Notes: generated by a model not told the origin, from the sequence alone. DNA of 32,000 bases from Opitutales bacterium (GCA_046881885.1 JBKSMP010000024.1:96744-128743); one strand, 5' to 3'. Shown: positions 2,808-31,914, counted from the stretch's first letter. Numbers and translations are program-made.

Positions 2808-2954
2808 CAACACCATACCCTTATTATTCAAAACACACCGCCCCTATTCCGTCCAGTTTTTTTTATAAATTTTGAAAACAAGAAAAAGAATTTCTATCCC
2901 TAATCCCACTCCAAACAACTTGACTTACACTTACAAAAAGAATAGAATTTGCCA

Positions 2955-4766
2955 ATGGATTTATCTTTGGCACATTTGAAAAAAGTTTTGAAATTCGGTT
3001 TGTTTACGCTATTTTTTAGTATAAATCTTTCAGTAAAAGCCTACGTTCCCGCACAACTTGAAGGGAAATATGCAATAAAAGAGAATGATACACTATGGGG
3101 TACAGATTGGTTTTCTAGCTTCCCAAATAGAAATTTAACCTGCACCCCTAGTGCTATGGTAGACGAAGCAGGAGTTTTATGGACTGCATCTTTTGAATAT
3201 ATGCAAGATCATAAAGGACTTGGTTACGAACTTGACTGCCATGAAAGGGTAAATGGAACAATCACTTCACAAGAACATCGTTTCTATCCATGGACACTCA
3301 TTCCAAACGTCACACCAAATTGCGGAAGTGATCCCAACCTTAATACCGGAATCCCAGAGGATTCAAACTTTTTCCAGAAATACATACACAATATCCTACA
3401 ACCTTGCATCGCACAAGATATTGAAAATGCTTCTCATGTTTGCATGTTCATTTACTGTCCACCGACACGTTATATGAATGCTACATGCAACAATCCCAAT
3501 GCTGAGGGGGGAAGTGTTGAAGGCTTAATGTATTTTGATTTTTATAAAGATTTCATCAAAGGTACTTATGCAACAAATCTCACTCACGAAACAAATTTTT
3601 ACTACCATACCGACAATCGCATTTATGCTTTTAATCAGCAAAACTTACGAAAAAGCTCTGATATGACTCACGTAAATCTAGAAACTGGGAATTACACTGC
3701 TTGGCATTATCGTGGATTGGTCCATTTAAATTTTATTGCCACCAATGAAAGTGATGGCACCTGTCATGCTGTGTATCATCAATATAACAGTCGGTGGTCA
3801 GATAGAAACTCCATCACAACAAGAACGACACATGCAACTCATACTACAATAAAAACTTATCCTCGTTATATAAAATTTGGTGATCATGTGTATGGAATGA
3901 TTGCCGATTCATGCTTTAATGGCATTTATATCACAAAACAAGGAATAGAAGATTCCGACTATACAACCATACAAAACTGGGCCTATCCATTTAACAATAT
4001 AACACATTATAGTATTTGGGCAGTAGCACACAACTACGACTTTTGTATCGCAAAAGCAAAAGATGGAACAGGTGTTGTTTGCGTATTAGGATTACGTCCT
4101 ACTTGCGCTTCATCTGCAGATAAAACTGAATTATCCGCCGCTTATAATAAAGCATGGAATAATACTTATACAAATTGGAACTCCAGTAATATTTCTGACC
4201 CCATTTGCCTTATGCTATCTTCTTGTAGAATGGATAAAACACCAAGTGATAAAACCGGAACATTTTCCGTAAACAAATACCCCGAACTATGCTATGAATC
4301 ACCGCAAAACATTATTTATTGCACTGGAAAAACTTCTTTTTCTCAAGCTTGCGATCTTTATTGTTCTTGTCGTACAGATGATTATGAGTATCACGATACA
4401 CAGCTTTACAAAAATACACATAAATGCTGTGTTTATACAGCTCCAAGCGGCAATCAATACATCATCTATGCTTATTGCTATCCCGGAAAAACAAAAAAAT
4501 GCTATTTAGGTTATGCACAGTGTATCGTGGATTCCAATTATAAAGTACAACTTCTTACAAAAACAGAATTTTCAAAAGAAATTTACAACGAAAAAGGAGA
4601 GAGGACAGACATAGAAAGTATAGGAGAGATGAATACTTGCGAATATATCGTTTCACTCGACTGTAAAGGCCCTGCAGGCAACGAAAATGTATGGCTAACT
4701 TGGCGTTATGGGGATTCCCATTACTATCTTTTCCATATCGCCGCCAAAGACCTTGTTGGAGAATAG
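2955..4766 (+). CDS. Hypothetical secreted cysteine-rich protein (603 aa from ATG 2955)
   Basis: This is a long uninterrupted ORF. It has a signal-peptide-like N-terminus (MDLSLAHLKKVLKFGLFTLFFSINLSVKA/YVP) and 26 Cys. I recognise no family motif. The ORF-track start at 2949 is TTG; the first ATG is at 2955. Confidence 0.8.
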   Translation: MDLSLAHLKKVLKFGLFTLFFSINLSVKAYVPAQLEGKYAIKENDTLWGTDWFSSFPNRNLTCTPSAMVDEAGVLWTASFEYMQDHKGLGYELDCHERVNGTITSQEHRFYPWTLIPNVTPNCGSDPNLNTGIPEDSNFFQKYIHNILQPCIAQDIENASHVCMFIYCPPTRYMNATCNNPNAEGGSVEGLMYFDFYKDFIKGTYATNLTHETNFYYHTDNRIYAFNQQNLRKSSDMTHVNLETGNYTAWHYRGLVHLNFIATNESDGTCHAVYHQYNSRWSDRNSITTRTTHATHTTIKTYPRYIKFGDHVYGMIADSCFNGIYITKQGIEDSDYTTIQNWAYPFNNITHYSIWAVAHNYDFCIAKAKDGTGVVCVLGLRPTCASSADKTELSAAYNKAWNNTYTNWNSSNISDPICLMLSSCRMDKTPSDKTGTFSVNKYPELCYESPQNIIYCTGKTSFSQACDLYCSCRTDDYEYHDTQLYKNTHKCCVYTAPSGNQYIIYAYCYPGKTKKCYLGYAQCIVDSNYKVQLLTKTEFSKEIYNEKGERTDIESIGEMNTCEYIVSLDCKGPAGNENVWLTWRYGDSHYYLFHIAAKDLVGE

Positions 4767-6052: not shown

Positions 6053-6439
6053 TCAAAGACAATAACGAATCTCCTTAATAACAGGAGTCGGCAAAATTTG
6101 ATTAAGGGTGTTTTGAATAAGTTCCCGCTCAAACTGTAATTTCTGCTGAACAATCGCATTAGGCACTTTTAGCCACAAACACCCTCTTTGCGTTAAACGT
6201 TCCGGATTACACTGAGCTGCAGTTGTCCCTGCAAACCAACTCGACCAATGCTCGTCTAAAAACTGCAAATAATCCACACGCTTTTGATCACGCAACAACC
6301 GATTAAGCGCATTCCCCAAAACATTATCTAAAGCAACAGGGGCCTCATTAGGCCTATCAATGGCATCCTTAGGAAGCCCCCTAAAGGTAGCAATAAGGCG
6401 AATATCGCTTGGGCGAAAAGTAAATTCTTTACGCGACAC
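6053..6439 (-). CDS. DUF721 / DciA-like protein
   Basis: The 128-aa product has the DUF721 pattern: LDNVLGNALNRLL..., W..W.G...A..C.P..L..G.L.L.V.....QQKL.F....I...LN. The start is GTG at 6439-6437, which lies inside the last codons of the upstream gene (11-nt overlap). Confidence 0.6.
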   Translation of the reverse strand: MSRKEFTFRPSDIRLIATFRGLPKDAIDRPNEAPVALDNVLGNALNRLLRDQKRVDYLQFLDEHWSSWFAGTTAAQCNPERLTQRGCLWLKVPNAIVQQKLQFERELIQNTLNQILPTPVIKEIRYCL

Positions 6440-10429: not shown

Positions 10430-11080
10430 TTAAAATTGATAACGCAAACCAAACTCGAGCGAATGCATATACGGCGTCTTGAGCGGCTTGATATCAGCAT
10501 TAAAATCTTTATGCGCAAAGGTTACGGTTTCTGTCTTCATGCAACGATACCCCATGGTCAACATCCAATTAGAACTGATTTCATAGGATACACCTGCCAT
10601 AAGCTGACCAGCAAACGCATATTTGACTAAATCGTAGTTTGCATTAAACATAGCATTTTCATAAAAATGATACTTCAATCGTACAAGACCACAGCCAGCA
10701 CCGACATAAAAAGAAACCTGATCTTGCAATTTAAAATCATAATATACATTCAACATGGAAGACAAAGCTGTAAAACGTGCATTTTGACAATCATCACCAC
10801 CATGATTAAAAATCGTAGCATAATGCTTTGCCGCACGATCTTTCACTTCTTTATTTTCGTATTGAATAATACCCAACTGAAATCCCAAACGCCAATTATC
10901 ATATTGGATACCAATTTCGCCATTCAAAAGCGGTGCGCTTTTGTAAGAAACCCCATCCTTTTTCTGAGGAACACAATAGCCTGCTTTTAATTCAACATAC
11001 TTACGAAAGGCATTATCTGCATGCAAACAACTCGCACAAACACCTACGAACAACCCAATTACTTTTGTACTTACTTTCAT
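10430..11080 (-). CDS. Small outer-membrane beta-barrel protein (OmpA-like/OMP_b-brl type, 8-strand class)
   Basis: The signal peptide is MKVSTKVIGLFVGVCASCLHA/DNA. The body shows alternating amphipathic beta-strand patterning with aromatic girdles, and the terminal sequence GLRYQF ends in Phe. The mature part contains four Cys. Confidence 0.72.
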   Translation of the reverse strand: MKVSTKVIGLFVGVCASCLHADNAFRKYVELKAGYCVPQKKDGVSYKSAPLLNGEIGIQYDNWRLGFQLGIIQYENKEVKDRAAKHYATIFNHGGDDCQNARFTALSSMLNVYYDFKLQDQVSFYVGAGCGLVRLKYHFYENAMFNANYDLVKYAFAGQLMAGVSYEISSNWMLTMGYRCMKTETVTFAHKDFNADIKPLKTPYMHSLEFGLRYQF

Positions 11081-11177
11081 TTAAAAAAATATTCTCAGAT
11101 AAGAATCACACAACAAACAGCACAAAGTCAAGCCATCATTACATGAATTTTATTCAATTTCACCTAAAATCAAAAAT

Positions 11178-11265
11178 TCCGAACACAAACAGCAGGCCGC
11201 CTAATGGAAACTGCCCGACCTCACAATCGGGCAGTAATGTTTTTTTGTCAAATCTTTTATTTATT
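11178..11265 (-). repeat. Copy A of an 88-nt conserved 3'-end module (last two codons, TAA, hairpin and a conserved distal block)
   Basis: 80 of 88 positions are identical to 11964-12051 by my hand alignment. Four of the eight differences fall in the hairpin loop. Confidence 0.9.
11211..11234 (-). terminator. GC-rich hairpin downstream of the 223-aa paralog (candidate intrinsic terminator)
   Basis: CTGCCCGA-cctcacaa-TCGGGCAG forms an 8-bp stem. On the gene-sense strand it is followed only by TTT. On the opposite strand it is followed, after 5 nt, by T7. Confidence 0.5.
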
Positions 11266-11928
11266 ACTTTGCTCAGACATAAGCACATCAAAATCAGATT
11301 GTAACCTTGGAGGTATTTGATTTCGATTCGTGTATAATTGACTTGGTGTAATTTTATTTGCTCTTATTAATCTAGTAGCTGCATTTTTTTTCCCAGGTGT
11401 CGCCGTTCTTTGTATATAATCAAAAATCTGCTGACCAGTAACCCCCTTAGGCTTTCTTGCTTCTTTTTCACGGCGTCTTTGCTCCTCTGCTTGTGCCGCC
11501 TTGCATACTTTACAGGTTTGCCCCATATCCAAAACTTGAACAAGATCACATAAAATTGTTACTTCCGATAACAAACGATCGCATTTTTCCAACAAAGCGC
11601 GATAAACCCTATCCGCATTCAACGGATCCACTTCTAACGTACCCGTATCGGTCGTCCTAACAGCCAATTCCTGCTTCAAAGTCCGACAATGGTGACGATT
11701 CCTTACACCTCGTAAGCGCTGGGCCTCTAGCTCATGCTCCTGTACAAACGCCTCCTCTACATCACTATCCCAATTATCAACTTCAAATTCATCTAAACGC
11801 AATTTCAAAGTTTCCACAGGGCATTGGCCGATCTTGTGATCCATCCCACAAACGTCACAAAAATCTCCCCACAAAAGCCCTTGCAAACCCAAACCTAAAC
11901 CGATACATTTGAACACACTACTCTTCAT
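11257..11928 (-). CDS. Hypothetical protein (~223 aa) with two CxxC motifs and a C-terminal module shared with the upstream 797-aa protein
   Basis: ATG 11928 (MKSSVFKCIGLGLGLQGLLWG...) has AAGGAAA ~9 nt upstream and is preferred to the TTG at 11955. The C-terminal ~80 aa align with the C-terminus of ORF 12043-14436 (AEEQRRRE-EARKPKG-TGQQ...TP.KK..A.R..RA..I.P...Y...NK*). Confidence 0.7.
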   Translation of the reverse strand: MKSSVFKCIGLGLGLQGLLWGDFCDVCGMDHKIGQCPVETLKLRLDEFEVDNWDSDVEEAFVQEHELEAQRLRGVRNRHHCRTLKQELAVRTTDTGTLEVDPLNADRVYRALLEKCDRLLSEVTILCDLVQVLDMGQTCKVCKAAQAEEQRRREKEARKPKGVTGQQIFDYIQRTATPGKKNAATRLIRANKITPSQLYTNRNQIPPRLQSDFDVLMSEQSNK

Positions 11929-11963
11929 ATTATCATTTTCCTTTCTTTTAATCAAACAAACGC

Positions 11964-12051
11964 TCCGAACACAAACAGCAGGCCGCCTAATGCAAACTGC
12001 CCGACTTGATAGTCGGGCAGCAATGGTTTTTTGTCAAATTTTTTATTTATT
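11964..12051 (-). repeat. Copy B of the 88-nt conserved 3'-end module
   Basis: 80 of 88 positions are identical to 11178-11265. It sits at the same position relative to the stop codon of its gene. Confidence 0.9.
11997..12020 (-). terminator. GC-rich hairpin downstream of the 797-aa paralog (candidate intrinsic terminator)
   Basis: CTGCCCGAC-ttgata-GTCGGGCAG forms a 9-bp stem. The stem is conserved with copy A while the loop differs. Confidence 0.5.
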
Positions 12052-14436
12052 TTCTTTTTCTAAACTCTTAAAAGCTTCATGAAAAAATGGATCTAGTTGA
12101 CTCAAACTTAAATAAGTTGTACCAGGCTGTATTCTTTGGGCTCGCACCGCTCGATTGGCAAGCATACTTTTTTTAGGCGTACCATGCTGCACGACATAAT
12201 TTACCAGTTGTTGTCCCGTAAACCCCTTAGGCTTTCTAGCTTCTTCTTCACGGCGTCTTTGCTCCTCTGCTGCAAGACGTCTACGTTCTGCCTCTTCGCG
12301 CTCAAGACGTTCTCTCTCCAGGCGCTGCTGTTCCGCCAACTTCCGCTGTTCTTCTTCTCTGCGCTTACGCTCCTCCTCGGCTTTCCTTTTCTGCTCTGCC
12401 TCTTCCTTAGCTTTACGTTCCGCTTCTTTTTGCTGTCGGCTAAGCTCCGCTTGACGTTTTTGTTCTGCCTCTAATCTTTCGTTTTCCTCTTCCAATAAAA
12501 GCTCTACCCCTCGAACCATATCCATATCCAGCTCTGCCACATCTGATTCCCGCTGCTTTAGCAACACATCCATCGACGCTTCTATTCTTTGCTGATTAAC
12601 AATATTTTTCGATCTTTGCTTTAAAAACATATACTTTTCATCCAACTTACCGTAAATCGCCTTCTTTTTCCTCTGAAAATGACTTACATCCAACAATTCA
12701 AAACATTCTTTCTTCTCATTGTAATCTAAAAACATCGGCTCTGGAAACCGACATTCCTGCCGAGACACAAAATTCTGAAGCGCTTTAAACAAAAGCTCAT
12801 CTGTAGCAAAAACATACACTTTAATTTCTAATTGTTGCTTTTGATTTTCTGGACTGATCGAATCTTTAATACAAAGAAACTTATCTCCTATCCCTGATCG
12901 ACCTAAAGAATAATTTGTCAAAACATGCTGCACCTCTGCATTTTTTTCTTTCAAACAAGATTTCCACAACAAACCATAAAATATATTTTTTAAACTACGC
13001 GGACTAAGATACAAAGCTATTGATTTTTCATCTTTTTTGCCGTTTTCAAGAAACTTCTGCCCCGTTGCTTGACATAAATCTTCACTAATTAACGCATTAA
13101 AAGAAGGTTTTAATACTTTACTATTTAAAACACAGGAAGCATTTAACTGCTGCAACATAGACACTTTAATTTCCTTTAAAAAATAAAATTTATTATCTTC
13201 TATTTGCGGATATAAAGAAATCTCTTCTTCCTTTCCATTATCCCAAAAAATTGATTTTTTATTGTAAAGACATACAGAAAAAGCTGTTAAATCAACATTC
13301 TTATTTTCCATACTTTCCAAGGACAAAAAACAACTTTCCAAGGACAAAAAACAATATATCTCTGGAATAACCACCTTACCTTCTCTTTTTTCTGCAGAAA
13401 AGAAAATAAATTTATTTAACGAACCATCGTTCAAAGAAGGAAACCGATCTAAATAAGTAGAAGCTGATTGTAAAAGCTTCAATTTTTTTTCCCCCCCAAA
13501 AAAATGTTGTAAAGCAAAAGCACAAGCCTTTTTATTTGCATAGATATCTTTATCCAATTTATCAAAAGAATCAATTTCTTCCTTTGGGCTCAGCTCAACA
13601 CGATGCGAATCATTTAATAATTCATAAAAACATTCCTTCAATTTGGATTTGTAACCTTCCGGAAAAATTCTCAATATACCCTGCAAAGGATCTTTAAATT
13701 TACAATAAAAATTTTTAATGGAAAGTTCATCAAATTGTTGCATATAAAAAACTAACAAATTTTTCAATATTTGTTGTAAGGGAAGCAAAACACCTAACTG
13801 ATTACTTAAGTTTTCTACCGCTATTAAACTAATAAGTACATTTATACAATTTTTGTAAACTTGATCATTCGCAAAATCATCTACATCTTCGTTTACAAAC
13901 AATCTAAAACAATGCTTTGCTAAATTTTCATTAAATTCTTCATTTTTACTTAAACTTACAATTTCTGCCTTATGTTTTTTTATAAAATCTTTAAACAAAT
14001 CCTCTTTTTTCTTATAAAATGTACTTTTAATTAAAGTCTTGCCTTCTGCATCTAAAACGTCACTAAAATTGTAAAAATAGCTTTCATCAAAATTCAAAGT
14101 TGCTGACTGAACACTAAGATGCTGTATATTATACACTAAAAACCTAGCCAAAACCTTTTGAAGATTTGCTAAAATTTCATATTCTAATGCATCTGTTTTT
14201 CCTCTTTCTAAAATCTGTTTTATCTCCTTTGCTGTTTGAGAATAACGATCTTCTTCATCTTGCAAACCAAACAAAGAAAAACAATTCTTAATATCATCTT
14301 CTCGAAAACTCTTTTTTTTACTCAAATCTTTTATTGTTTGTATATTTTTCTCATTCAAAAGACGATCCGCCTTTACCGCGCTTAACGAAAAAGCAATAAA
14401 AACAAAACACTTAACAATACTATAAATTTTATGCAT
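12043..14436 (-). CDS. Hypothetical exported protein (797 aa): signal peptide, AT-rich K/N/F/L-rich region, E/R/K charged coiled-coil, shared basic C-terminal module
   Basis: The start is ATG. The signal peptide is MHKIYSIVKCFVFIAFSLSAVKA/DRL. Residues ~647-730 are almost pure E/R/K/Q/A heptad-like sequence. The last ~67 aa are homologous to the C-terminus of ORF 11257-11928. Confidence 0.8.
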   Translation of the reverse strand: MHKIYSIVKCFVFIAFSLSAVKADRLLNEKNIQTIKDLSKKKSFREDDIKNCFSLFGLQDEEDRYSQTAKEIKQILERGKTDALEYEILANLQKVLARFLVYNIQHLSVQSATLNFDESYFYNFSDVLDAEGKTLIKSTFYKKKEDLFKDFIKKHKAEIVSLSKNEEFNENLAKHCFRLFVNEDVDDFANDQVYKNCINVLISLIAVENLSNQLGVLLPLQQILKNLLVFYMQQFDELSIKNFYCKFKDPLQGILRIFPEGYKSKLKECFYELLNDSHRVELSPKEEIDSFDKLDKDIYANKKACAFALQHFFGGEKKLKLLQSASTYLDRFPSLNDGSLNKFIFFSAEKREGKVVIPEIYCFLSLESCFLSLESMENKNVDLTAFSVCLYNKKSIFWDNGKEEEISLYPQIEDNKFYFLKEIKVSMLQQLNASCVLNSKVLKPSFNALISEDLCQATGQKFLENGKKDEKSIALYLSPRSLKNIFYGLLWKSCLKEKNAEVQHVLTNYSLGRSGIGDKFLCIKDSISPENQKQQLEIKVYVFATDELLFKALQNFVSRQECRFPEPMFLDYNEKKECFELLDVSHFQRKKKAIYGKLDEKYMFLKQRSKNIVNQQRIEASMDVLLKQRESDVAELDMDMVRGVELLLEEENERLEAEQKRQAELSRQQKEAERKAKEEAEQKRKAEEERKRREEEQRKLAEQQRLERERLEREEAERRRLAAEEQRRREEEARKPKGFTGQQLVNYVVQHGTPKKSMLANRAVRAQRIQPGTTYLSLSQLDPFFHEAFKSLEKENK
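13313..13354 (-). repeat. Perfect 21-bp tandem duplication inside the 797-aa CDS
   Basis: CTTTCCAAGGACAAAAAACAA occurs twice back to back (13313-13333 and 13334-13354). It encodes CFLSLES-CFLSLES in frame. Confidence 0.95.
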
Positions 14437-30845: not shown

Positions 30846-31214
30846 ATGTTGAATTTTTTGATAATTGTTGGATCTATTCTATTAGTTGGCTTGTGCGCAT
30901 GGATTATTTTGCTCATTTTAATGCAAAAACCAAGCGCTAATGCAGGCATGGGAGCAGCTTTAGGAGGAGGCGCAGCAGAATCTGCTTTCGGAGGTGAAGC
31001 TTCTAATGTTTTGACACGTTGGACGGTTTTCGGAGTTATTGGATTTTTCACCCTCACGCTTTTCCTGACATTAGCCCAAGTTTACAACCATCACAAAAAC
31101 ACAGCGACAACTGAATTAGTTCCCGTTATTGAAAAGCAAGAAGCGAGCTCTTTAACGCAAATACCAAGCGAGAAGTCAGAAAACGCTGTTGCTCATGAGG
31201 CAAGCAATAAGTAA
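30846..31214 (+). CDS. secG: Preprotein translocase subunit SecG (with C-terminal extension)
   Basis: The protein has two TM helices flanking the Gly-rich loop (QKPSANAGMGAALGGGAAESAFGGEASNVLTRWT). Confidence 0.85.
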   Translation: MLNFLIIVGSILLVGLCAWIILLILMQKPSANAGMGAALGGGAAESAFGGEASNVLTRWTVFGVIGFFTLTLFLTLAQVYNHHKNTATTELVPVIEKQEASSLTQIPSEKSENAVAHEASNK

Positions 31215-31251
31215 TCACAGCATTTTTTTTATAATAAATTGTTTCGTACAC

Positions 31252-31914
31252 ATGGCTGTGTGCGAAAAGTTTATTTTTGAAGACCCAGAACGATTATTTG
31301 GCATTACAGAACGCATTTGTGCTCTAAAAACATATACTCCAAACGAAAATTATTGTTGGCATCTAGAATGGAAAGTTGACAAACAAAGCTATTCAGGACG
31401 CTTGACAGGAAACGTAGAAGGCTCACATCATTGGATTAACATTGTGTTCCCAGATCAAACAACGCTCTTTTTTGACAAAAACAATCCTCAACAAGCTTTT
31501 TACCCCCATCGCCTCTGTCCTTTACCGCAAGAACGTTGGCAAGAACCTTTAGGCGGACTTCCTTCCGTTTCTTATGAACTTATTGCCATGCCGTTTTTAA
31601 ACGACACCGTTATTTCCGTTAAAAAAACAGCTAAACAAGGACGAAAAGCCTTAGAAGTAGATTTTAAACGCGAAAACCATATCTCTACTAAAGCTTTTCT
31701 AGATTTAAAATTTAACACAATTTTAGAAGTTCAAGCACATTCAACCCATCCTACTGGCAAATTCCAATTAAAAAGCTTAAAAAAATTCAACGGCATTTGG
31801 GGACTTCATCAAGCCGTATTCTCGCAAGGGAAAAAAACCACAAAGCTAAAAATAACTTCAATAGGGTTCCTGCAAAAGTCGGAGATGAAAAACTTTGGTA
31901 TGCCGCATGAATAA
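31252..31914 (+). CDS. Hypothetical protein (~220 aa)
   Basis: The frame is uninterrupted with ordinary composition, and I recognise no motif. The start is ambiguous between ATG 31252 and ATG 31195, which overlaps the secG end. Confidence 0.55.
   Translation: MAVCEKFIFEDPERLFGITERICALKTYTPNENYCWHLEWKVDKQSYSGRLTGNVEGSHHWINIVFPDQTTLFFDKNNPQQAFYPHRLCPLPQERWQEPLGGLPSVSYELIAMPFLNDTVISVKKTAKQGRKALEVDFKRENHISTKAFLDLKFNTILEVQAHSTHPTGKFQLKSLKKFNGIWGLHQAVFSQGKKTTKLKITSIGFLQKSEMKNFGMPHE

Follow-up and report, generated by a model that had tools for sequence, protein, structure and literature searches.

Introduction

Why two exported proteins that are otherwise unrelated should end in the same stretch of sequence, directly upstream of a gene for an outer-membrane β-barrel, is the question raised by a gene cluster of Opitutales bacterium (GCA_046881885.1). 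The stretch of DNA analysed, referred to here as the window, comprises 32 kb of JBKSMP010000024.1 (96744-128743), and the cluster occupies positions 10430-14436 on its minus strand. Open reading frame (ORF) calls bear out the description first made without database searches (the sequence-only reading) of three consecutive minus-strand genes, namely a large gene (12043-14436) encoding 797 amino acids, a small gene encoding ~223, and a barrel gene (10430-11080) encoding 216. The small gene extends over 11257-11955 when called from a TTG codon (232 amino acids) and over 11257-11928 when called from the conserved ATG at 11928 (223 amino acids), which is where its homologues start. The sequence-only reading had gone on to suggest that the shared C-terminal module may be an anchoring or targeting tag, carried by unrelated cargo and served by a dedicated barrel. 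The explanation favoured here, with moderate confidence, is a different one, in which the module would be an orphan binding tip mounted on a stalk, shared by the two genes through partial duplication and gene conversion, and linked to the barrel by conserved position only.

Results

Duplication of the 3' end

Comparison by BLASTP confirmed that the large and small proteins are alike only at their C-terminal ends, where residues 723-797 of the former and 147-223 of the latter (the last ~77 residues) share 48% identity (E=2e-19); nothing else was returned under E=1. At the DNA level the region contains two direct repeats, one of 98 nt (11168-11265 versus 11954-12051, 88% identical) and a coding repeat of 76 nt (11416-11491 versus 12196-12271, 84% identical), within a duplication of ~330 nt that falls into three parts. 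The first of these is a junction, ~95% identical between the copies, that encodes AEEQRRRE.EARKPKG.TGQQ; it is followed by a tail core of ~45-55% identity, and then by the last codons, which run through the stop codon into a 3' element at ~90% identity. The sequence-only reading had described an 88-nt repeated module as the sole spacer between the genes. The repeat is real, with a length of 98 nt, but it is part of the longer duplication that runs into both coding regions, and although one copy fills the large-to-small spacer, the other accounts for only about half of the 176 nt between the small gene and the barrel gene, of which ~88 further bases are unique. On the evidence of these alignments, the 88-nt module is the non-coding end of the ~330-nt 3'-end duplication and not an independent spacer element.

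Copy 1 of the 3' element (11954-12051, minus strand) comprises the stop codon, a TTGACA sequence with an A-run, a hairpin at 11997-12020 and a T-rich tail, and copy 2 (11168-11265, minus strand), which lies between the small gene and the barrel gene, has its hairpin at 11211-11234. The core motifs of the element occur twice in the window and in none of 100 shuffles, and the element and the module are each present in two copies within the 32 kb. The GC-rich hairpin is kept in 8 copies from 4 lineages, with the base-pair changes located close to the loop. A terminator scan flagged the hairpin on the plus strand only, and an Rfam scan of the window returned no RNA family, so the element corresponds to no known RNA. 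The TTGACA sequence and A-run, which are situated just past the stop codons (11240-11256 and 12026-12042, minus strand), are kept in 7 of the 8 element copies across lineages; they could serve the downstream gene as a -35 box, or could simply be the A-arm of a terminator that works in both directions.

Mosaic tails and gene conversion

The order large, small, barrel is kept in four related metagenomic lineages. Locus L001 (JGI, 8.4 kb) carries genes for an antiporter, the large protein, the small protein, the barrel and prolyl-tRNA synthetase (ProRS); L004, from a metagenome-assembled genome (MAG), carries the large-gene tail, an element, the small gene, a further element and the start of the barrel gene; and L005 and L009 (both ENA) jointly provide the large, small and barrel genes. 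Nine 3' ends were aligned and scored by segment identity matrices and sliding windows, and three types of tail were distinguished. Type A is found in the large gene of the window and in both genes of L005, type B in the small genes of the window, L001 and L004 (90-93% identical among themselves), and type C in the large genes of L001 and L004 (91% identical) and in P0004, a fragment of a large-protein orthologue. The tails cluster by type, and not by gene or genome; junctions and terminators cluster by genome. Indeed, the large- and small-gene junctions of L004 are 100% identical, both L001 copies read GGTGTTACAGGA, and L004 and the small gene of the window read GGGGTTACTGGT.

Individual tails are themselves mosaic. 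The large gene of L002 is an A/B hybrid, the 3' half of which matches the B-type small-gene tails (97% to that of L004 in places); upstream of the junction it matches the small gene of L004 at 100% for at least ~60 nt, and at its terminus it is identical to the small gene of L001, also in the sequence immediately past the stop codon. The two L005 tails are 97-100% identical in their 3' halves, the small gene having taken on a type-A 3' half. Paralogues are therefore closer to one another within a genome than orthologues are between genomes, and the breakpoints are mosaic, which is the pattern by which gene conversion is recognised; read in this way, the alignments are those of repeated gene conversion, with varying breakpoints, between the two 3' ends. 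Window and L001 DNA are ~85% identical over an 8.4-kb syntenic block, within which the large-gene tail, at 38-41%, shows the lowest identity, and this indicates that the tail was replaced, as opposed to having drifted gradually. Because the stop codon and terminator are included in the shared segment, and are homogenised in each genome, the sharing is attributed to partial duplication and gene conversion and not to the convergent acquisition of a signal.

The bin of MAG GCA_964543635.1 contains two large-gene 3' ends, the A/B hybrid of L002 and the type-C end of L004. Their presence in one bin could reflect a mixture of strains, two paralogues, or polymorphism of the tail within a population.

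Frameshifts in the small-gene tail

The module encoded by the small gene of the window contains a G3A8 homopolymer run (11384-11394, minus strand), which in relatives is 1 nt shorter, with the stop codon 5 codons later. The run is G2A8 in L001 (about 6362-6371) and G3A7 in L004 (about 917-926), and the small ORFs of both loci end with GKKMQ(L/Q)LD before the stop, the other 39-41 tail codons being stop-free in the alternative frame. A different site is affected in L005 (about 1800-1810) and L009 (about 55-62), where the small-gene tail has T6 and its last 12 residues are altered in consequence; at this site the same organism's large-gene tail has T7, in otherwise identical surroundings, and the two samples agree. 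The small-gene tail is consequently out of frame in three of four lineages (L001, L004 and L005/L009), and the large-gene tail is always intact. The differences between runs could be due to phase variation, transcriptional slippage, decay or assembly error. Since the frame is lost at A or T runs in three of the four lineages, the small-gene tail appears to be either dispensable or switchable.

Predicted fold of the shared domain and its stalk

The module corresponds to residues 734-797 of the large protein (12046-12237, minus strand; tail type A), with an isoelectric point (pI) of 10.3, and to residues 160-223 of the small protein (11260-11451, minus strand; tail type B), the latter being in frame only in this window. 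AlphaFold2 (AF2) modelled the two with predicted local distance difference test (pLDDT) scores of 83-87 and 80-85, respectively. The predicted order of elements in the large-protein module is β, α (741-751), α (754-765), β, α (783-796), forming a domain of ~58 amino acids; the topology predicted for the small-protein module is identical, so that both models agree. Confidence was low for the N-terminal regions of both proteins. The domain is preceded in the large protein by a stalk rich in E, R and K (residues 638-733; 12238-12525, minus strand), which is predicted to form one continuous helix, with 28 K+R and 32 D+E among its 96 residues and a grand average of hydropathy (GRAVY) of -2.1, and which gave only sub-threshold, compositional matches to MAP7 and TolA. 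The equivalent helix in the small protein is short and variable in length, and in L001 the small gene has gained ~29 codons from the charged helix of the large gene. These models confidently predict that both exported proteins end in one basic, independently folding β-α-α-β-α domain carried on a charged helix.

Searches with the module returned no family to which the domain could be assigned. There was no Pfam match at E<=10 for 7 module sequences, a sequence profile search of the PDB gave chance matches only (E>0.1), and Foldseek searches of the PDB with both models returned nothing at E<0.1, the large model matching generic helical repeats only. Models of sorting signals in Pfam and NCBIfam, among them LPXTG, PEP-CTERM, the type IX secretion C-terminal domain and GlyGly-CTERM, were not matched at E<=1-10 by either protein or by the isolated module. 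The module also has no hydrophobic C-terminal window, is predicted to be a helical α/β mini-domain and has two carriers only, all of which set it apart from known C-terminal sorting signals. The earlier statements that it resembles neither a known sorting signal nor a known DNA-binding domain are upheld, the former by these family searches and by hydropathy, the latter by the absence of any Pfam match to a helix-turn-helix (HTH) family.

Distribution of the module

A word-index protein search with the module returned no matches, whereas an exhaustive hmmsearch of 1.84 billion representative proteins gave three real ones, namely the large protein of the window, P0004, and P0005, which is an orthologue of the small protein. 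The module was found in one of 185,579 species genomes, the MAG GCA_964543635.1, titled 'uncultured Opitutales bacterium', and two scans of metagenomic contigs, with profiles of the module and of the small protein, yielded nothing that could be confirmed. As judged from these searches, the module belongs to this gene pair alone, within a lineage that is narrow and uncultured.

Two further candidates, P0006 (L015, 8001-9398) and P0008, were rejected as homologues, the match being short and inflated by repeats. Both are signal-peptide proteins composed of 4-8 tandem HTH_Tnp_1-type repeats with 'RAEEQRTGQQIV' linkers, and their genes adjoin those for AbiE and ParE on an unrelated contig of 2.66 Mb. 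Their resemblance to the module junction is judged to be due to chance.

The large and small proteins

Neither the large nor the small protein belongs to a Pfam, NCBIfam or PADLOC family. The large protein is laid out as a Sec-type signal peptide (residues 1-23), a helical region of ~610 amino acids that lacks a known family, the charged single helix and the C-terminal module. Its N-terminus, MHKIYSIVKCFVFIAFSLSAVKA followed by D, was identified as Sec-signal-like by eye and from hydropathy. A single marginal transmembrane-like window was present in the large protein, at residue 355 (Kyte-Doolittle score 1.63), and the three proteins otherwise have no such segment beyond their N-termini. Only two other full-length homologues of the large protein were found, at 70% and 64% identity. 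Within the large gene, a 21-nt unit is perfectly duplicated in tandem (13312-13353), giving an in-frame doubling of 'CFLSLES' (residues 362-375), a unit that is single-copy in the homologues P0002 and P0003. The ~60 N-terminal amino acids of the orthologue fragment P0004 (L006, 288-1244), which have a Pfam match to CotJA, are unrelated to the large protein, and probably represent a chimeric scaffold or a wrongly assigned start.

The small protein has a weaker signal-like N-terminus (MKSSVFKCIGLGLGLQGLLWG followed by D), an acidic helical part with 8 Cys, a short linker rich in E, R and K, and the C-terminal module of tail type B. Four homologues all retain its two CxxC motifs (C24xxC27 and C139xxC142) without change, and the N-terminal part of the gene is under purifying selection, the ratio of non-synonymous to synonymous differences (pN/pS) being 0.12-0.26 at pS values of up to 0.5. 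In the tail, where changes are few, pN/pS is ~0.35-1.0. Signal peptides are kept in the homologues. The claim that the cluster encodes exported-looking products and is conserved is thus borne out, both by the signal-peptide-like N-termini and by the presence of a tail-bearing gene next to the barrel gene in related loci.

The barrel and its position

The identification of the third product as a barrel stands at the level of the Pfam model OMP_b-brl (PF13505), which it matched over residues 10-216 with 53.8 bits against a gathering cutoff of 28.7. It also passed the cutoffs of Surface_Ag_2, Opacity and OmpA_membrane, and fell below those of the more specific NCBIfam models Adr (Rick_Adr; 42 against 210 bits) and OmpW (23 against 287 bits). 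The N-terminus, MKVSTKVIGLFVGVCASCLHA followed by D, is signal-like, and the C-terminus, GLRYQF, ends in what by eye is a terminal aromatic β-signal. No POTRA, ShlB, Autotransporter or Usher domain was detected in its 216 amino acids, and only small-barrel families were matched. Seven close homologues were found in all (67-88% identity), the closest by BLASTP being P0011 (88%), and the barrel DNA is ~77-98% identical to that of L001. By these family matches the barrel is a generic small outer-membrane protein (OMP), assignable at superfamily level only. A distant relative, P0017, proved uninformative, being located in an array of OMP paralogues of another organism.

A tail-bearing gene lies directly upstream of the barrel gene in every related locus recovered (L001, L004, L005 with L009, and L007). 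In L007 (Logan) the barrel is 67% identical to that of the window, and ~30 nt upstream, with no intervening hairpin, is the end of an ORF that terminates in LHDFFHPAFDELMNDEK and a stop codon, a recognisable type-A tail end (the window reads LDPFFHEAFKSLEKENK and stop). Downstream of the L007 barrel are glycosyltransferase genes, and not that for ProRS. The motif 'CTTGAC(T/G)TTGTG', ~50 nt upstream of the barrel start (window 11110-11135), is conserved in L001, L004, L009 and L010, and is probably the barrel's own promoter, to judge from this conservation. With a conserved hairpin at the end of both the large and the small gene, and the conserved TTGAC motif ahead of the barrel gene, there is no indication of an obligatory operon.

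Genomic setting

The cluster is flanked by genes for a Na+/H+ antiporter and ProRS, and the remainder of the window is ordinary chromosomal housekeeping, including genes for valyl- and methionyl-tRNA synthetases, Rho, SecDF, RecJ, an NtrC-type activator and a Ser/Thr kinase. No secretion-system or DNA-related genes were present in the window, nor was there any TpsB, Rhs or type VI secretion context. Elsewhere in the window, ORFs at 2949-4766 (plus strand, 605 amino acids) and 31189-31914 (plus strand, 241 amino acids) have no Pfam family.

Discussion

The anatomy of the locus is accounted for by a series of events in which the 3' end of one gene, comprising the junction, domain, stop codon and terminator hairpin, was copied onto its neighbour before the lineages split. 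Ongoing gene conversion has since homogenised the junction and terminator within each genome, and has also shuffled the three tail types between the two genes. With regard to function, the rigid stalk may hold the domain away from the body of the protein as a binding tip, which would act in the envelope or outside the cell; if the partner of the tip were to vary, this would explain why no other stretch of the locus has diverged as far as the large-gene tail. The small protein may be able to do without its tail, which conversion would renew, or slippage may act as a switch for the tail.

Several points weigh against this explanation. The alignments behind the AF2 models were only 2 and 4 sequences deep, the signal peptides were judged by eye and hydropathy only, and the related loci are short metagenomic contigs, some of low coverage (2.6x in the case of L005), with L002 and L004 derived from one co-assembled MAG that perhaps comprises two strains. 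The homopolymer frameshifts could partly be metagenome errors; conversely, L005 and L009, which are from two samples, agree, and L001 and L004 shorten the run differently. Among all parts of the cluster, a homology-based function exists for the barrel only. Finally, adjacency to the barrel is kept in every lineage, including L007 with its ~30-nt gap and lack of a hairpin, so that a functional link between tail and barrel retains some, if low, probability.

The idea from which the analysis departed, that the shared module is a targeting or anchoring tag recognised by the adjacent barrel, which would dock both exported proteins at the outer membrane, draws on that same adjacency. A tail-bearing gene is immediately upstream of the barrel gene in all five lineages, including the one in which the downstream neighbourhood differs, both carriers and the barrel have signal peptides, and the module has no known alternative role. 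Moreover, the module matched no known domain with an unrelated role, its carriers do neighbour such barrels, and the proteins were not found to be cytoplasmic. What stands of the sequence-only reading is therefore an exported cluster with conserved neighbours, in which a search for carriers did find them beside the barrel in all recovered loci. The proposed mechanism of a tag with a dedicated barrel is not supported, however. Only two carrier genes exist among 1.84 billion proteins, and these are each other's neighbours, which is not the distribution of a tag on unrelated cargo; the copy on the small gene has lost its frame in three of four lineages; and the module is confidently predicted to be a folded domain on a long helix, as opposed to a peptide signal. 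The tail is also the most variable part of the locus, far exceeding the variability of the barrel, the genes are set apart by hairpins and by what is probably a separate promoter, and the barrel comes from a generic OMP family. Recognition of the module by the barrel is on balance improbable. The same slight likelihood attaches to the suggestion that the module is a diverged LysM-like domain, which would bind peptidoglycan and tether both periplasmic proteins while the helix spans the periplasm, as in TolA or Lpp. The module is like LysM (PF01476) in its ~45-amino acid size, predicted β-α-α-β core, element lengths, G-x10-G-x19-G spacing, basic pI and occurrence on exported proteins, and hhalign against four Escherichia coli LysM domains gave one ungapped alignment of 37 columns in the matching register, with a score of 12.7, reached by 7 of 200 column shuffles (p ~0.035), reversed LysM scoring 9.9. 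However, the hhalign probability was 1%, there was no Pfam LysM match at E<=10, no PDB sequence match and no LysM in the Foldseek results (E. coli controls scored 47-111 bits), the GDT and Asn signature motifs are absent, the module has an extra C-terminal helix, and the score was exceeded by that of an unrelated HTH helix (24.8 over 16 columns), short matches being unspecific. It would, in addition, be surprising for a wall-binding domain to show more polymorphism than any other part of the protein, and the resemblance to LysM, marginal at the profile level, is a weak lead only. Least probable is a nucleic-acid-binding, HTH-like domain, with the proteins serving as secreted effectors or membrane-anchored DNA tethers. 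The pI of 10.3 and two helices joined by a tight turn would fit such a domain, as would a weak profile match of helix 2 to helix 1 of the HTH_Tnp_1-type repeats in P0006 and P0008, but that match covers 16-27 residues and falls partly on the inter-repeat linker in P0006, no HTH model in Pfam was matched, the window has no secretion system or DNA-related genes, and the signal peptides imply a location of the domain beyond the cytoplasm.

Neisseria pilE/pilS and opa, and the Anaplasma msp2 expression site with its pseudogene donors, are cases in which surface-protein paralogues arranged in tandem undergo gene conversion or concerted evolution. The present locus is like them in its conserved flanks and variable core, mosaic tracts, homogenisation within genomes and homopolymer frameshifts in one copy. 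It could feasibly be a contingency or cassette locus, in which the junction and terminator act as conserved handles flanking tip variants that are exchanged between the 3' ends, and in which an often-silent small-gene tail, switched by the A8 and T7 runs, varies the exposed tip of the stalked protein under pressure from a host or phage. The mosaic tails of the L002 large gene and the L005 small gene, the two different large-gene tails in one MAG, the frameshifts at homopolymers with a stop-free downstream frame and the standing of the large-gene tail as the divergence outlier are all in keeping with such a locus. Against it, and unlike the pathogen systems, the two copies here are the 3' ends of otherwise unrelated full genes in an uncultured host, with no archive of donor cassettes; the differences are between lineages only, with no switching seen within a population; the lineages compared are ~15% apart in DNA, such that the exchanges could be infrequent and of early date; runs of A7-A8 are nothing unusual at a genomic GC content of 38%; and the pN/pS of the small-gene tail, based on very few changes, fits decay equally well. 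A contingency locus is consequently considered unlikely, if not negligibly so. Slightly more doubtful is a minimal, two-gene form of tip-swapping, whereby a stalked exported protein changes its ~58-amino acid tip by conversion with the often-silent neighbouring copy, the junction and terminator handles guiding exchange and the homopolymers setting the expression of the second copy.

Other known systems resemble parts of the cluster. In common with the CdiA-CT and Rhs-CT polymorphic toxins, a large exported protein has a sharply conserved junction (EEQRRREEEARKPKG.TGQQ) and a variable C-terminal piece, with a second copy of junction and tail downstream. Unlike those toxins, the tail here is ~55 amino acids long and matches no toxin family, no type-specific immunity ORF follows it (a search of the spacers for hidden immunity-like ORFs found none that was credible), and the N-terminal domain of the downstream carrier is one of its own, conserved and subject to purifying selection whatever the tail type. 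The long, charged, continuous helix with a small C-terminal domain recalls TolA domain II and E-R/K single α-helix spacers. In contrast to TolA, however, residues 650-733 scored 15.1 bits against TIGR02794, a purely compositional match far below the cutoff of 59.45, there is no TolQRB or Pal context, and the N-terminus is like a cleavable signal and not a TolA anchor. The barrel, with above-cutoff matches to four barrel models in Pfam, a signal peptide and a Phe at its terminus, is akin to the OMP_b-brl, OmpA-TM, OmpW, Opa, Surface_Ag_2 and Rickettsia Adr group, but differs from OmpW and Adr in remaining below the NCBIfam equivalog and subfamily cutoffs.

The locus does not reveal a new sorting or secretion pathway. 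Tip-swapping, if true, would give a bacterium that is uncultured, and possibly host-associated, a means of varying ligands or antigens, and the polymorphism of the tails would matter more if population data showed active switching. What the favoured explanation, that of an orphan tip shared through duplication and conversion, would add is an undescribed domain, small and basic, which exported proteins of this little-known lineage are predicted to carry at the end of a charged single-helix stalk. If right, it would also show cleanly, on a small scale, how a domain can be transferred together with its terminator to an unrelated gene next door by partial duplication of a 3' end and gene conversion, both copies thereafter being kept partly identical while the core diversifies.

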